Shown: positions 201-4,783 of the stretch, piece by piece
How the letters are laid out: each line of letters begins with the position of its first letter
Position numbering within the stretch: position 1 is the first letter of the stretch
NCBI RefSeq assembly: GCF_003334815.1
Contig: NZ_QOWO01000075.1
Length of the DNA: 4,783 nucleotides
Strand: one strand, 5' to 3'
DNA from: Escherichia coli
GTDB lineage: Bacteria; Pseudomonadota; Gammaproteobacteria; Enterobacterales; Enterobacteriaceae
Position numbers and translations under genes: made by a program
Notes under the pieces: model-generated
Told to the model about the DNA's origin: nothing
The model's input: the letters and a program-made list of their open reading frames with translations, nothing else
Databases searched by the model: none

Positions 201-626
201 ATGCAGTATGCGAAACCTGTCACTCTGAACGTTGAAGAGTGCGACCGCCTTTCCTTTCTGCCTTACCTGTTTGGCAACGATTTTCTGTATGCCGAGGCGT
301 ATGTGTACGCGCTGGCGCAAAAAATGATGCCGGAATATCAGGGAGGCTTCTGGCATTTCATCCGCCTGCCGGATGGTGGCGGTTACATGATGCCGGATGG
401 CGACCGTTTTCATCTGGTCAACGGTGAAAACTGGTTTGACCGCACTGTGAGTGCTGATGCCGCAGGTATCATCCTGACTTCCCTTGTGATTAACCGCCAG
501 TTGTGGCTGTACCACGACAGCGGGGATGCGGGACTGACACACCTTTACCGGATGCGTGATGCGCAGTTGTGGAGCCACATTGAATTTCATCCCGAATGTA
601 ACGCGATTTACGCAGCACTGGACTGA
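201..626 (+). CDS. klcA: Anti-restriction protein, ArdB/KlcA family (141 aa)
   Basis: ATG at 201 preceded by GGAGG (189-193, 7-nt spacer). Translation carries family-typical blocks: [36 protein letters not shown] and C-terminal AIYAALD. The 141-aa length fits this family; the upstream in-frame start at 84 has no RBS and would give a poorly coding GC-rich extension. Confidence 0.85.
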
Positions 627-635
627 TTAACGGAC

Positions 636-654
636 GGGGCGGCGATGCCGCCCC
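636..654 (+). other. Intercistronic GC-rich hairpin (8-bp stem GGGGCGGC/GCCGCCCC, 3-nt loop), no U-tract
   Basis: Perfect inverted repeat 636-643 / 647-654 lying between the klcA stop (624-626) and the next gene's RBS (GGAG 661-664). Downstream sequence is not T-rich, so not a classic intrinsic terminator. Confidence 0.6.
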
Positions 655-672
655 TGTAAAGGAGACGAGAAC

Positions 673-1092
673 ATGTACTGTACTGTTAAAGAAATTATCC
701 GCGAAGTGCTGAATACAGACGTGCCGGACAGTGAATGTGTTTTTGCCGTGGTGCTGACCCGCGGGGATGTGCGCCACATAGCCCGGGACTGGAACCTGTC
801 AGACGATGAGCTGGAAACCGTCATGCAGCGGCTGGACGATGCTTTTGTATATGGCGCATGTGACAGAGTTGTTTCCGATATTGTCAATGAACTGATGGAG
901 GAAAAGCGCGTAAACCGTCTTGTAACAGTCCCTGCGGTGCTGCTGGAAAAAGTGATGGTGATGGCTGGTAGTGAAATTTATCGCCTCCATGCTGTAGGGA
1001 GCGAGAACGGGGGCGACGGTGACGCATTTGTCAGGGAAGAACGTGAGATTATGCGGGTAATGCGTCAGGCACTGGACGGGGAGAACGGGTAA
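673..1092 (+). CDS. Hypothetical leading-region protein, 139 aa (possibly DUF1380-like; assignment from memory, unverified)
   Basis: ORF with GGAG at 661-664 and 8-nt spacer to ATG 673. Acidic protein with coding-like composition; same strand and tight spacing with neighbours. Stop TAA 1090-1092 overlaps the next start. Confidence 0.75.
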   Translation: MYCTVKEIIREVLNTDVPDSECVFAVVLTRGDVRHIARDWNLSDDELETVMQRLDDAFVYGACDRVVSDIVNELMEEKRVNRLVTVPAVLLEKVMVMAGSEIYRLHAVGSENGGDGDAFVREEREIMRVMRQALDGENG

Positions 1093-1283
1093 TGAATATC
1101 AGCACGGAAACCCGCGAAATTCTGCGTAATTACAGGGCCGTGATTAATGCGCGGCGTCGTGAAATGGGGCAGAAACCGCTCACCACCGCGCAGATTGTTG
1201 ATGAAATCTGTGATTTTGTGGCGAATCAGCAGGCGGTTTTCCTCGGTGGTCACTACATCCTTCAGGGCAGCAGGCACAGGTGA
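1092..1283 (+). CDS. Small hypothetical protein, 63 aa, translationally coupled to the upstream ORF
   Basis: TAATG stop/start overlap at 1090-1094; GGGGAG at 1078-1083 with 8-nt spacer. No recognisable motif; called on context and coupling only. Confidence 0.5.
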   Translation: MNISTETREILRNYRAVINARRREMGQKPLTTAQIVDEICDFVANQQAVFLGGHYILQGSRHR

Positions 1284-1290
1284 TACAGGG

Positions 1291-1310
1291 CAGGCGGTGG
1301 AGGCCGCCTG
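1291..1310 (+). other. GC-rich hairpin just downstream of the 63-aa ORF stop (7-bp stem CAGGCGG/CCGCCTG, 6-nt loop)
   Basis: Inverted repeat 1291-1297 / 1304-1310 seen directly; begins 8 nt after the stop at 1281-1283. Confidence 0.45.
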
Positions 1311-1448
1311 TCAGCCCGCGCGAAAACCCCTGGCAGGCTGGCGCCTGCCGGAAGGGATGCGGGCCACGCTGGCGCGTCGCCCGTTACCCTTCCCGTTTGT
1401 GATGTGTCCGGAATGTTTTTTCCTGATGTTATGTTTCTGTGGTTACTG

Positions 1449-1477
1449 TTCTTCTTCTTCTTCTTCCTCTTCTTTCC
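1449..1477. repeat. Polypyrimidine simple-repeat tract containing (TTC)6 at 1449-1466
   Basis: Direct reading: ttcttcttcttcttcttc followed by ctcttctttcc; pyrimidine-only on the + strand for 29 nt. Confidence 0.9.
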
Positions 1478-1837
1478 GTTCCTCTCCTGTTTATGCCTTT
1501 TCCGGGCGTCCCCCTGGCGGGGCGGGCTGTCGTGAACGGAGCCAGCGGAGCTGTCTCCGCCCTGGCGGGCTTCCATCCCTGACGCAAAACCCCGGGTTTG
1601 CAGCGACCGGAACGGTCGCGCCACCCTTGTCGCGCCGTGGCCTGCGCTCCTGGCATCCCGGCAAAAAGACGCCGGGATGTAAGGCGCAACGCCGTTTCGC
1701 GCACGCGCTCTCCGTCGTTGCGGCGGGTCCCTGCTCATTGCCTGCCGGGTGCCACACACCCGTATGAGTCCCTGTCGCCGGGGGCTGATACAGCCACAAC
1801 CTGCCGCACTGACTGTCCAGGGTAAATGAACAGCCCA

Positions 1838-1873
1838 CAAAATTTTTTACCCAGAACCCGGTAAAAAATTTTG
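1838..1873. other. Perfect 14-bp AT-rich inverted repeat (CAAAATTTTTTACC / GGTAAAAAATTTTG) with 8-nt spacer
   Basis: Arms 1838-1851 and 1860-1873 are exact reverse complements. Flanked by a further imperfect pairing, 1813-1821 with 1882-1890 (8 of 9), suggesting a longer imperfect hairpin centred near 1855. Confidence 0.8.
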
Positions 1874-2252
1874 CGTTCTGCCCAGGACAGGTGCGTCAGG
1901 CCGTGGCAGTGATGCCCCTTGCGGCGAAGGTTCTCAAACGGGTGAAGTTCATACCACAGGGAATACAGCAGCAGGTTCCCGCGAAACGTCAAAACCGCGG
2001 CTCCCGAAACTCAACGGGTGATGTTCTTTAAAAATCAGGATTTATTTCAGGCTCCGGCAATACGCATTTATGTGTTCTGTCAGCATCCTGCTGACAGGTA
2101 ATGAGAACGCAGGAACAGAAGGAGGAATACACCGGAAAACGTCAGATGCAGATATGAAAAAAGCAGGTCAGGGACCTGCTTAATCCACGCCGAAGAGACT
2201 GTGCAACCAGTCTTTAAGGCACTGTTACCAACCTGTCATAAGGTATCCATTT

Positions 2253-2483
2253 ATGACTGTAAGCATTGTTTCACCTTCCGCAGCGGCTGTAAAGCCCCGT
2301 CGTCATACCCGTTTCAGACGCGAAGACATCCCCGCGCCGGAAATTGACCCCGTGCTGAAAGCCTTCGGGCGACACATTGCCCGGAGTTTTCGCCGGGGGC
2401 GTGGTGTACACATCCCCGCCATGAAAAACACGGCTTTCGGGCAGGTGCTCCGCACACTCGAACTGAAACGCGCTTTTAACTGA
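2253..2483 (+). CDS. Small arginine-rich hypothetical protein, 76 aa (possibly DUF905/UPF0401-like; unverified)
   Basis: ATG 2253 with weak SD (AAGG 2240-2243, 9-nt spacer); first ORF downstream of the structured element; co-oriented. Many R/K residues (KPRRHTRFRRED, RSFRRGRG). No motif recognised with certainty. Confidence 0.55.
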   Translation: MTVSIVSPSAAAVKPRRHTRFRREDIPAPEIDPVLKAFGRHIARSFRRGRGVHIPAMKNTAFGQVLRTLELKRAFN

Positions 2484-2491
2484 TGAGGTGA

Positions 2492-2511
2492 GCCGCCCCG
2501 CGAGGGGCGGC
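2492..2511 (+). other. Intercistronic GC-rich hairpin (8-bp stem GCCGCCCC/GGGGCGGC, GCGA tetraloop)
   Basis: Perfect inverted repeat 2492-2499 / 2504-2511 between the stop at 2481-2483 and the RBS AGGAG 2523-2527 of the next gene. Uses the same octamer pair as the 636-654 hairpin, in swapped arm order. Confidence 0.6.
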
Positions 2512-2534
2512 AACAGACAGAAGGAGAACATTTT

Positions 2535-3896
2535 ATGACATTATCAGCAATCACCATGACCGCCCCGGAAGCCGCCAGCCCGGTGCAGATGTACCGCGCG
2601 ACCTACTCACCGGATGATAACAAACTGCGCCTGTATGCCGCGTCACGTCTTGACCCGGAGACGTATAAAAAAGTGCATGATGCCGGTTTTCGCTGGGCAC
2701 CAAAACAGGCGCTGTTTGTCGCGCCAGCCTGGACACCGGGCCGGGAAGACGTGCTCCTCTCACTTGCCGGAGAGATTGAGGATGAAGACAGCACGCTCGC
2801 TGAACGTCAGGAAGCACGGGCGGAGCGGTTTACCGGATACAGCGGAAAGCGGGCCAGTGAATCCGCACAGGCACTTGATGAAGTGGAAAGACTGGCCGCG
2901 ATGATCCCGCCCGGTCAGCCCATTCTTGTGGGGCATCACAGCGAACGCCGCGCCCGTCGTGATGCGCAGCGTATTGAAAACGGCATGAAACGTGCCGTGA
3001 TGCTCTTTGAACGTGCGGAATACTGGGAAGAACGGGCGCGGTCGGCACTGCTTCACGCGAAGTATAAAGAACGCCCGGACGTTCGCTGGCGTCGTATCAA
3101 AAAAATCGAAGCGGATTTGCGCAAGGCTGAAAAGACCATCGCACAGTCGCAGAAATATCTGACGATGTGGCGGGCTGAATCGCTGGATCTGAATATGGCA
3201 AAACTCATCAGCAGTCATGACCATATCAGCGCCTGTTTCCCGCTGGATACGTATCCGCGCCCGGCAGAAAAAAGCCAGTATGAAGGGAGCCGGTCGTTAT
3301 GGTCGGCCCTGGATGATGACATCATCACCACGGAGCAGGCCCGCGAAATTGCGATCCGCTGTCATGAACGGCAGATTCAGCATCAGCAACGCTGGGTTAA
3401 CCACTATCAGAACCGCCTGATCTATGAGCGTGCCATGCTGGACGAAAGCGGCGGCGTGGTTACCCGGACACAGGATTTTGAGCCGGGCGGACAGGTTTTC
3501 AGCCGGGGCGAGTGGCTGACCATCATCCGCGTGAACAAAAGCAACGGGGCGGTGAGTTCAGTCACAACGCCGAATTACAGTTTTCTCGGGTACAGCGGCA
3601 CGATGAAAGTGACGCCCGATCGCATCACGGACTACAAAGCACCATCGGCAGAAGAGGCTGCCGTCGCCAGTCAGGCCGCGAAGCGTCCGCCGGTAGTCAA
3701 CTATCCGGGGGAAGGTTTCCGGGAAATGACAAAGGCACAGTGGGCCGCCCTGCCCCGGGACTGTAAGGCCGTGCGCAGTGTGGCAGAGACAGAAGACCAC
3801 GGGGCATACCGCTACCGCCGCACAATGGATAATAATTTCCGCCTGGTGAGTGTGTATATTACCGACATGAAAATCACGGAAATCCCACAGAAATAA
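2535..3896 (+). CDS. Protein of unknown function, 453 aa (possibly DUF3560-type leading-region protein; unverified)
   Basis: Long ORF with RBS AGGAG at 2523-2527 and 7-nt spacer to ATG 2535. Central highly charged, probably helical segment (ERQEARAERF ... RRARRDAQRIENGMKRAVMLFERAEYWEERARSALLHAKYKERPDVRWRRIKKIEADLRKAEKTIAQSQKYL). No catalytic motif recognised by eye. Confidence 0.9.
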   Translation: MTLSAITMTAPEAASPVQMYRATYSPDDNKLRLYAASRLDPETYKKVHDAGFRWAPKQALFVAPAWTPGREDVLLSLAGEIEDEDSTLAERQEARAERFTGYSGKRASESAQALDEVERLAAMIPPGQPILVGHHSERRARRDAQRIENGMKRAVMLFERAEYWEERARSALLHAKYKERPDVRWRRIKKIEADLRKAEKTIAQSQKYLTMWRAESLDLNMAKLISSHDHISACFPLDTYPRPAEKSQYEGSRSLWSALDDDIITTEQAREIAIRCHERQIQHQQRWVNHYQNRLIYERAMLDESGGVVTRTQDFEPGGQVFSRGEWLTIIRVNKSNGAVSSVTTPNYSFLGYSGTMKVTPDRITDYKAPSAEEAAVASQAAKRPPVVNYPGEGFREMTKAQWAALPRDCKAVRSVAETEDHGAYRYRRTMDNNFRLVSVYITDMKITEIPQK

Positions 3897-3901
3897 GGTA
3901 T

Positions 3902-3927
3902 ATCCCCCCGGGAAATCCCCGGGGGAT
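3902..3927 (+). other. Intercistronic hairpin containing two CCCGGG palindromes
   Basis: ATCCCCCCGGGAAATCCCCGGGGGAT: outer 7-bp stem 3902-3908 / 3921-3927, a C-C mismatch, inner 3-bp stem 3910-3912 / 3917-3919, loop AAAT. Lies between the stop at 3894-3896 and the RBS GGAG 3931-3934. Confidence 0.5.
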
Positions 3928-3942
3928 GACGGAGATAATGAC

Positions 3943-4506
3943 ATGCACAGTCAGTTAAGAGAACGTATCCGGCTGCTGCGCGCAAGGCTGGATAACGCCG
4001 CACCGGTTGCTGAAATCCGGGCTGAATCTCAGCTTTTTGTGACACCTGCCCCGGTCTGTGATCGCCTGGTGACGCTGGCGGAAATCAGCAATCGTGATCA
4101 CATTCTGGAACCCTCTGCCGGCACCGGGGCCATACTGCGGGCGATTCGGGATACCGCGCCGGAGGCCATGTGTGATGCGGTGGAGAGCAACAGCGGGCTG
4201 GTCCGGTATCTGCGGGAAAATTTTAACGGTGTCAGGGTACAGTGTGGCGACTTCATGGAATGGCAGCCGGTGCAGTATTACAGCCGGATTATCATGAATC
4301 CGCCGTTCAGCCACGGGCAGGATATCCGGCATATCCTGCGGGCCTTTTCCCTGCTGCGTCCGGGTGGCGTTCTGGTCGCCGTCTGTCTGAACGGGCCACG
4401 CCAGCAGGAGAAGCTGTTACCGTTTTCTGACATCCGCGAGGAGCTGCCGCGCGGCACGTTTGCTTATACCCATGTTCCGACGATGATTATTCGTCTGCGC
4501 GCCTGA
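3943..4506 (+). CDS. Orphan SAM-dependent methyltransferase, 187 aa (amino-methyltransferase fold; N6-adenine/N4-cytosine DNA MTase-like, no recognisable target-recognition domain)
   Basis: RBS GGAG 3931-3934 with 8-nt spacer. Motif I (AdoMet binding) ILEPSAGTGAIL near residue 55; motif IV NPPF near residue 119 (IIMNPPFSHGQD). Motif order I then IV and the small size indicate a minimal MTase core. No adjacent restriction endonuclease gene in the window. Confidence 0.85.
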   Translation: MHSQLRERIRLLRARLDNAAPVAEIRAESQLFVTPAPVCDRLVTLAEISNRDHILEPSAGTGAILRAIRDTAPEAMCDAVESNSGLVRYLRENFNGVRVQCGDFMEWQPVQYYSRIIMNPPFSHGQDIRHILRAFSLLRPGGVLVAVCLNGPRQQEKLLPFSDIREELPRGTFAYTHVPTMIIRLRA

Positions 4507-4654: not shown

Positions 4655-4783
4655 CATTTGTCTGTTACTGATGATGTTGTTGTTCCTGCTACTGCTACTG
4701 CTACTGTTCTTCTTTTTTCTGCTGCTCTGATTACTGTCTGTTTTGTTGTTCTCCTGCTTATGCCTTTTCCGGGCGTCCCCCTG
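4655..4783 (+). promoter_or_regulatory. Start of a second copy of the Frpo/ssi-like element (truncated by window end)
   Basis: 4751-4783 (ctcctgcttatgccttttccgggcgtccccctg) matches 1484-1516 at 32 of 33 positions. Upstream there are shared ttactgttcttctt and ctgatgtt blocks plus a different simple-repeat tract. Confidence 0.6.
4670..4750. repeat. Compound simple-repeat tract: (GAT)2(GTT)3 at 4670-4684, (CTGCTA)3 at 4686-4703, T-rich pyrimidine run
   Basis: Direct reading of the sequence; differs in unit and copy number from the tract at 1449-1477 in copy 1. Confidence 0.9.

Follow-up and report, generated by a model that had tools for sequence, protein, structure and literature searches.

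An apparent gene pair behind klcA in the leading region of conjugative plasmids is separable

The anti-restriction proteins ArdB of R64 and KlcA of RP4 have reportedly been studied as single proteins. We have analysed the genes that follow klcA in a stretch of 4,783 nucleotides from Escherichia coli (assembly GCF_003334815.1, contig NZ_QOWO01000075.1; hereafter the window), where an open reading frame (ORF) for a protein of 139 amino acids (aa), ORF1, overlaps one for a protein of 63 aa, ORF2. A first-pass annotation had taken the two for a translationally coupled pair. The small new point of our study is that this apparent pair is separable, and that ORF2, of the AreA/YffA family, is a terminal cistron shared by ArdA and KlcA operons. 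Probably, ORF1 and ORF2 are not an obligate pair but cistrons that joined early anti-restriction operons independently of each other, as accessory genes for non-enzymatic proteins.

Among the closest described systems are the early operons led by klcA/ardB and ardA. According to those parts of PMC12672017 that deal with them, RNA sequencing found the KlcA-homologue operons of F and pESBL induced in transconjugants, transiently and just after transfer, and klcA and ardA each have a class 2 single-stranded DNA (ssDNA) promoter of similar type with a mapped start site. Such a promoter lies 5' of klcA in pESBL, where its start site was mapped by rapid amplification of 5' cDNA ends (5' RACE), and a homologous promoter is marked in F. 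In the same parts of the paper, ssDNA promoters are described as switching off once the complementary strand is made, Frpo2 is placed upstream of ssb and downstream of the KlcA operon in F, and the operons are discussed by their lead genes without a characterisation of the small downstream cistrons.

The families themselves have been catalogued by Samuel et al. 2024 (PMC11541004, supplementary file 3). There, AreA/YffA/YchA is family 6, with 4,048 members, the label 'Uncharacterized' and a median position 15 genes from oriT; YcjA/YcgC/YfeC/YubJ is family 14 (3,145 members, position 15) and KlcA is family 9 (position 16). The family of ORF2 was unmatched in the anti-restriction and anti-CRISPR sequence and structure sets of that study, and only 31 of the 3,145 members of the ORF1 family match ArdB structures. 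Both genes are already known, being annotated on thousands of plasmids including F, with ORF1 belonging to a Pfam DUF and both families catalogued.

Coding status and co-occurrence of ORF1 and ORF2

ORF1 (673-1092, plus strand, second cistron) and ORF2 (1092-1283, plus strand, last cistron) are protein-coding genes under purifying selection. The ratio of nonsynonymous to synonymous substitution (dN/dS), determined by the Nei-Gojobori method over nine plasmid alleles that are 87-99.5% identical, was 0.09 for klcA, 0.30 for ORF1 and 0.11 for ORF2, and the variable sites of ORF2 fall on codon positions 1, 2 and 3 in numbers of 2, 4 and 15. Alternative frames gave ratios above 1, including that of a 70-aa antisense ORF at 1065-1277 (4.2) and those holding a long overlapping plus-strand ORF at 1147-1767; the sole exception is a frame on the antisense strand whose third codon positions coincide, and in which no listed ORF lies. 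Since selection, the third-position variation, the values above 1 in other frames and the conserved, GGAG-bearing junction all agree, ORF2 is a real gene. The first-pass annotation had named absence of the 63-aa frame from related plasmids as grounds for regarding it as a chance ORF; it is in fact conserved there, homologues being retained at 46-98% protein identity. That ORF2 arose by chance, or is conserved on behalf of a DNA or RNA element instead of a protein, can practically be dismissed. Its small size, the lack of a Pfam family and the highly structured DNA beside it would suit such a view, but its frame is open in distant plasmids of many genera at 46-62% protein identity, its Shine-Dalgarno (SD) motif is correctly spaced, its AlphaFold2 (AF2) model reaches a predicted local distance difference test (pLDDT) of 86, and the RNA at its start folds unremarkably (z -1.0).

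ORF1 differs from its neighbours in being a mosaic. Two allele types alternate in three or more segments (about residues 58-75, 79-106 and 126-139) that are shuffled among plasmids (loci L002-L007 of our comparison set), and the gene has therefore recombined internally; ORF2 and klcA are far more uniform. A scan of ORF1 for positive selection found no 20-codon window with dN/dS above 0.5.

The supposed co-occurrence of the two genes across plasmids is broken both ways. A scan for ORF2 homologues with one genome per species yielded 29 loci, which span Escherichia, Klebsiella, Raoultella, Enterobacter, Citrobacter, Lelliottia, Hafnia, Salmonella, Pantoea and others. The gene immediately upstream encodes ArdA in 14 of them (identified by Pfam PF07275, E 8.5e-33), KlcA in 5 and a DUF1380-like protein in 10, so that ORF2 follows ArdA or KlcA directly in 19 of the 29. 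The clearest case is L026, whose ORF2 protein is 98% identical to that of the window: ORF1 is absent, and a hairpin plus SD motif like the one before ORF1 in the window stands directly before ORF2. In the converse direction, roughly every second deep lineage in our sample has a gene of the ORF1 type but no ORF2. Downstream of such genes ORF2 is missing from L011/L012 (where it is reduced to about 17 nt of its start), L015, L021 and L022, and apparently also from the short contig L018. Decay of single members is seen as well: L008 (3001-3418) combines a frameshifted ORF1 with an intact ORF2, and in L016 (4461-4655) and L017 (2728-2913) an ORF2 homologue 50 nt downstream carries an in-frame stop (RRRES*LSPV), while their relatives L047, L049 and L051 have it intact. 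Wherever the gene upstream of an ORF1-type gene is visible, it is klcA. Hence the constant feature of ORF2 is its place as last cistron of an ArdA- or KlcA-led operon, not the presence of ORF1, and that of ORF1 is its position after KlcA; from these constant positions we read the two as probably independent accessory modules. Among ORF1-clade lineages, those with ORF2 carry a GGGD/GGGS loop in ORF1, and most of those without ORF2 are also without the loop (exceptions P0296 and P0326).

Two further observations concern the same loci. L023 (4111-4987), L035 (1561-2485) and L042 (1563-2487) have two DUF1380-like genes in tandem after KlcA and ahead of the ORF2 homologue. In plasmids of the Salmonella/Citrobacter type, the gene after the ORF2 homologue encodes an 84-aa protein homologous to the theta subunit of DNA polymerase III (PF06440), at 4470-4724 in L009, 4100-4354 in L010 and 5363-5617 in L024.

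The junction itself agrees with its first description: an acidic 139-aa protein and a 63-aa ORF overlap in TAATG (1090-1094) beside klcA, the TAA of ORF1 (1090-1092) and the ATG of ORF2 (1092-1094) sharing one base. A second form, ATGA with a 4-nt overlap, is present in L002, L003, L006, L007, F and L013, with L014 joined to its ORF2 homologue in the same way as L013. Both junction alleles retain the GGAG ribosome-binding motif of ORF2, which lies within the 3' end of ORF1 at 1080-1083 (plus strand), 8 nt before the ATG. In distant lineages the overlap is replaced by spacers of 10-50 nt, several of them with an independent ribosome-binding site; thus the ORF2 homologue follows after 13 nt, with its own AAGGAG and a GTG start, in L009, L010, L023 and L024, and after 10 nt in L019. 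Because ORF2 has a GGAG of its own at 8 nt and the RNA structure at its start is not unusual, independent initiation would be possible. RNA structure that hides the ORF2 start and so enforces coupling was considered and is unsupported by the same z value.

As a stand-in for a complex, we modelled ORF1 and ORF2 with AF2 as one chain joined by a (G4S)6 linker, that is, with a monomer model, with a paired alignment of little depth and without a predicted aligned error. The complex that the first-pass annotation had suggested looking for was not obtained with confidence in this crude test: the predicted template modelling score (pTM) was 0.39, and the ORF2 part was less confident in the fusion than alone. 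Altogether, coupled translation of the two genes in the F/I lineage is plausible from the TAATG and ATGA overlaps and the retained GGAG, whereas the functional or stoichiometric relationship drawn from the overlap finds no support in the separable loci, the spacers and the low pTM. The overlap looks like local compaction and not like a sign of obligate stoichiometry.

The pair appears far more constant when only the dominant plasmids are viewed. Window positions 600-1400 match more than 5,000 PLSDB plasmids at no less than 80% identity, mostly conjugative IncF and IncI plasmids from Escherichia, Klebsiella, Salmonella and Shigella, on which the three genes are annotated as 'antirestriction protein', 'DUF1380 family protein' and 'hypothetical protein'. 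In the matching records the region sits between the partition genes and ssb/psiB/psiA, that is, in the plasmid leading region. Plasmid F carries the identical trio order at 56755-57837, with ORF1 at 57227-57649 and ORF2 at 57646-57837. In 5,426 complete E. coli genomes, ORF1 was found in 4,733 records (3,477 genomes), ORF2 in 4,763 records (3,493 genomes) and the klcA-ORF1-ORF2 block, at a coverage of at least 80%, in 4,647 records (3,435 genomes). Nucleotide identity was at least 90% for ORF2 in 4,761 of the 4,763 records, and 80-90% for most ORF1 copies. The near-constant trio in E. coli mainly reflects a single successful lineage.

Contigs labelled as Streptomyces morookaense and as Oscillibacter/Oscillospiraceae metagenome-assembled genomes (L026, L029, L032 and L041) also carry leading regions of the E. 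coli type, with an ORF2 protein 95-98% identical to that of the window in three of them and 62% identical in L041. These labels are almost certainly due to contamination or mis-binning.

The two protein families

ORF1 has an isoelectric point (pI) of 4.53 and a net charge of about -12, and goes by the names YcjA, YubJ, YcgC or YfeC in various annotations. On its own it matches Pfam DUF1380 (PF07128) weakly, with E 1.2e-3 and 19.4 bits over profile positions 1-106 of 137, and proteins identical to it are annotated by NCBI as 'DUF1380 family protein'. The wider clade makes the relationship stronger: 11 of 17 ORF1-clade members reach PF07128 at E 1e-3 or better (best 1.7e-14), and an hhalign comparison of the clade with the methylase-adjacent DUF1380 clade, that is, with bona fide DUF1380 paralogues that sit a few genes upstream in the same plasmids, gave a probability of 99.8% and E 1.2e-27 over 139 aligned columns. 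A Foldseek search of AFDB50 with the ORF1 AF2 model returned DUF1380 proteins only, down to 17-26% identity, at probability 1.0. Because profile alignment, clade matches and structural neighbours concur, ORF1 is, as far as sequence and model comparison can tell, a divergent member of the DUF1380 family. A profile search against 1.84 billion cluster representatives retrieved 137 relatives of ORF1, many of them fragments and the full-length ones at 25-60% identity. The ORF1 part of the AF2 fusion is entirely alpha-helical, its six helices being modelled with moderate confidence (pLDDT 56-90 per 10-residue block).

ORF2 is mildly basic (pI 9.8) with an arginine-rich N-terminal helix, while its distant homologues have a net charge near neutral (+0.6 to +1.8). 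Proteins named AreA in UniRef (P0376, P0389 and P0415) are 62-63% identical to it over 100% of its length, and AFDB entries named YffA and AreA show 51-95% identity; our literature search did not find the origin of the name AreA. Modelled alone, ORF2 is predicted to form helices at 5-24 and 32-61. Its conserved AV(F/Y)LGG(H)(F/Y)I end appears as a beta hairpin in the fusion model and as a helix in the model of ORF2 alone. The search of Pfam returned nothing significant for ORF2, only a weak DUF7420 match (E 0.03), so that of the two domain assignments suggested at the outset only that of ORF1 could be made, weakly from its own match and strongly from profile-profile comparison. A kinship of ORF2 with YubE, a small protein encoded ahead of the DUF1380 paralogue, was rejected (hhalign probability 0.2%).

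Function searches left both proteins within their own families. Neither belongs to an enzyme family in Pfam, NCBIfam, PHROG or PADLOC, which together with the small helical models bears out the earlier remark that no catalytic motif is recognisable in them. Sequence searches of the PDB gave no functional assignment, structure searches of the PDB and AFDB50 gave no fold relatives outside the own families, and Pfam, PHROG and PDB revealed no sequence or fold similarity to the known anti-restriction proteins ArdA, ArdB/KlcA, Ocr and Ral/Lar. A Ral/Lar-like function, considered for the similar size and the anti-restriction context, found no sequence evidence. No match of ORF1 or ORF2 to toxin or antitoxin families was found in PADLOC, Pfam or NCBIfam, and our literature search on both families found only gene lists or unrelated words and no assigned function.

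Operon context and structured DNA of the leading region

All six genes of the window lie on the plus strand. The first, at 201-626, encodes a KlcA/ArdB-type anti-restriction protein of 141 aa and would be the first cistron of the operon: its product matches Pfam Antirestrict (PF03230) with E 2.4e-26 and the PHROG anti-restriction profile with E 1.7e-20, and it is labelled 'antirestriction protein' in matching plasmids. The gap between klcA and ORF1 measures 46 nt and holds only a GC-rich stem-loop, GGGGCGGC-GAT-GCCGCCCC (636-654, plus strand, found in the sequence and by RNA folding), and the SD motif AAGGAG (659-664, plus strand), 8 nt 5' of the ORF1 ATG. Directly 3' of the ORF2 stop, a GC stem-loop of 7 bp without a T-run (1291-1310, plus strand) was not called by a terminator scan.

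This block is framed by structured DNA. The first 200 nt of the window (minus strand) are the 3' part of a structured region upstream of klcA that matches the published class-2 ssDNA promoter and is cut by the window start; they share 93-98% identity with the DNA 5' of klcA in F, L001 and L003. Folded as ssDNA, the klcA-upstream intergenic region of L001 (415 nt) has a free energy (dG) of -105 kcal/mol and z -5.4 against shuffles; with this score, the homology to F and IncI and the genes on one strand, the klcA-upstream region has the structural traits of an ssDNA-promoter leading operon. On the other side, positions 1283-2023 (minus strand) are homologous to the Frpo2 region, with 89% identity to F 57837-58609, which lies between the 63-aa gene and ssb; a long hairpin at about 1700-2030 has a dG of -93 kcal/mol and z -9.8 when the minus strand is folded as ssDNA. 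Since the Frpo2-like element starts the next transcription unit, 1283-2023 marks the 3' boundary of the klcA operon. The hairpin upstream of klcA would form on the transferred strand, which we infer to be the window's minus strand. The genes thus lie where the first-pass annotation had put them, between klcA and a structured element, in a leading region with one hairpin upstream of klcA and a Frpo2-like one downstream.

Because ORF1 and ORF2 share the strand of klcA, the 46-nt gap holds only hairpin and SD motif, and the next promoter element comes after ORF2, the two genes would be the second and third cistrons of the early klcA unit. The proposal that they are early-expressed establishment factors is reasonable at the level of the operon, since the KlcA operon is induced in transconjugants of F and pESBL in the data of PMC12672017 drawn on here.

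Hairpin-plus-SD modules resembling that at 636-654 also stand 5' of the ORF2 homologue where it adjoins ArdA or KlcA. As a side observation, short perfect GC-rich stem-loops, each followed by an AAGGAG-type SD motif, lie before almost all cistrons of these leading-region operons; such modules stand at 636-654, 2489-2513 and 3903-3925 in the window and 5' of the ORF2 homologue in L026-L054, with the stem-loop CCGGCGGGG-AAA-CCCGCCGG before ORF2 in ArdA contexts. Individual genes seem to come and go between the modules, ORF1 in L026 being an example, and the stem-loops may be recombination signals or signals for mRNA processing and stability.

Beyond ORF2, about 970 bases of non-coding, highly structured DNA extend to the next unit, which comprises a basic 76-aa ORF (2253-2483), a 453-aa DUF3560 protein (2535-3896) and a 187-aa class I S-adenosylmethionine-dependent methyltransferase (3943-4506). 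The latter is similar to a methylase domain found in large phage proteins and to PADLOC mad2 (E 1.3e-19). The whole unit (2253-4506) is missing from many relatives, including F, where ORF2 is followed directly by ssb; the Frpo2-like hairpin of the window precedes this unit and not ssb. At 1432-1516 and 4699-4783, pyrimidine-rich (CTT/CTG)n tracts end in a shared 34-nt sequence of the TTATGCCTTTTCCGGGCGTCCCCCTG type; its copies are 97% identical to each other, it also occurs in F, and the window ends within the second copy. Tract and 34-nt sequence may be a shared module of Frpo-type elements. Finally, the minus strand of 2158-2258 matches Rfam AS-pc01 ('Antisense to pHK01_035') below threshold, scoring 68.7 bits where the gathering score is 79, with E 5e-11 and over the full model length. 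The stretch is flanked by a sigma-70-like promoter on the minus strand (2265-2293; TTTACA, 17 nt, AACAAT, with TG) and by a terminator-like hairpin with a T-run (2161-2181, minus strand), and looks, from its sequence, like a small antisense RNA that reaches into the 5' end of the 76-aa ORF.

Alternative readings and known systems

We thus propose that, in the klcA operon of the leading region of F/I-type conjugative plasmids, ORF1 would serve as second and ORF2 as third cistron, with ribosomes that terminate on ORF1 re-initiating at ORF2, aided by its own GGAG. The two would be separate small helical modules added independently to anti-restriction operons: ORF2 (AreA/YffA) as a conserved terminal cistron of the ArdA and KlcA types, and ORF1 as one of the DUF1380 proteins that appear to recur behind anti-restriction functions, in the orders methylase-YubE-DUF1380 and KlcA-DUF1380. 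Judged from context, both most likely bind host or plasmid proteins in the short ssDNA phase of establishment, and such binding would help the plasmid to escape restriction or some other early host response. The link to anti-restriction would be tighter for ORF2 than for ORF1. Several points weigh against this view. The position of ORF2 after ArdA or KlcA could be inherited synteny of a cassette flank and not a shared function; the trio is almost never broken in the dominant E. coli lineage (about 97% of records), as a functional unit would look; the tracking of ORF2 by the GGGD/GGGS loop hints at some co-adaptation of ORF1 and ORF2; the crude AF2 fusion leaves room for a complex; and the published induction data, in the parts of PMC12672017 used here, are at operon level. 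More ambitiously, AreA/YffA could be a widespread anti-restriction accessory protein that closes any operon with a class-2 ssDNA promoter, with DUF1380 as a second such family. AreA/YffA would then act on the host pathway of ArdA and KlcA (Type I restriction-modification or its proteolytic control) or on a second defence system; we hold this for a tentative possibility.

The same loci bear on the other explanations that we considered. If the two proteins were an obligate two-subunit factor, with coupling keeping an acidic ORF1 and a basic ORF2 in fixed proportion within a heteromer, one would expect what the dominant plasmids display, namely an overlap conserved in two forms on IncF/IncI plasmids and in the distant L013, opposite charges, both genes in about 97% of the E. 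coli records that have either, and an ORF1 loop that follows the presence of ORF2. One would not expect 19 of 29 loci in which ORF2, in one case as a 98%-identical allele, stands after ArdA or KlcA without a DUF1380-like gene, nor the lack of ORF2 beside the ORF1-type genes of roughly half the deep lineages, nor the frameshifted ORF1 beside an intact ORF2 in L008, nor a fusion model with pTM 0.39 in which the ORF2 part loses confidence. We therefore consider an obligate complex unlikely. It is also rather improbable that ORF2 is a small regulator or nucleic-acid binder that closes the early expression window by acting on the ssDNA promoter, the operon mRNA or a host promoter, with ORF1 as an unrelated passenger. 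Its basic pI of 9.8 and arginine-rich N-terminal helix, its invariable place as last cistron of ArdA and KlcA operons, both on class-2 ssDNA promoters, and its better conservation than ORF1 in the E. coli records would suit such a role; however, searches for helix-turn-helix, ribbon-helix-helix or other DNA-binding families and folds gave no match, the distant homologues are near neutral, and a dedicated repressor is not required, because ssDNA promoters, as described in the consulted parts of PMC12672017, already silence themselves when the complementary strand is made.

A toxin-antitoxin-like addiction pair, with acidic ORF1 as antitoxin and small ORF2 as toxin, is suggested by two small overlapping plasmid genes of opposite charge and by other such genes (hok-type) in the same leading region. 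Yet PADLOC, Pfam and NCBIfam yielded no toxin or antitoxin family, ORF2 is common without ORF1, an intact ORF2 beside the broken ORF1 of L008 would not be tolerable for a toxin, and an ssDNA promoter, silent in established plasmids, is unsuited to addiction. Such a pair is very improbable.

The genes are of interest for their abundance. Besides F, plasmids in some two thirds of complete E. coli genomes carry them; they are among the largest uncharacterised leading-region families, in an operon induced within minutes of the entry of a resistance plasmid. A small gene that closes ArdA and KlcA operons whatever precedes it raises a testable question, that of a role of AreA/YffA in escape from restriction. 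If such a role proved true, AreA/YffA would be a common new component of the anti-defence equipment of plasmids and might serve as a target in efforts to limit how far resistance spreads.

In summary, the locus can be set beside five known systems. To type II toxin-antitoxin pairs, the likeness is that of two small overlapping genes of opposite charge; ORF1 and ORF2 differ in their non-obligate co-occurrence, the lack of a family match and a promoter wrong for addiction. With the DUF1380 proteins of enterobacterial plasmids (YcgB/YubF-type), ORF1 shares a length of about 135-145 aa, the N-terminal MYGT-type start, a conserved V-T-V-P-A core and the helical architecture, and both ORF1 and the DUF1380 paralogue follow an anti-restriction function in the leading region. 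The ORF1 clade always comes after KlcA, whereas the DUF1380 paralogue follows the orphan methylase and YubE in the same plasmids, and an acidic GGGD/GGGS loop is present in part of the ORF1 clade and absent from the DUF1380 paralogues. ORF2 is a member of the AreA/YffA family (family 6 of PMC11541004), with which its size of 63 aa and its leading-region position agree. With KlcA/ArdB and ArdA, ORF1 and ORF2 would have operon and expression timing in common, and ORF1 is small and acidic as are ArdA and KlcA, though without sequence or fold similarity to them. Lastly, the window resembles the early klcA/ardB and ardA operons, as far as these are described in the parts of PMC12672017 considered here, in sharing the gene order of F and IncI, a structured promoter upstream and a Frpo2-type element downstream.

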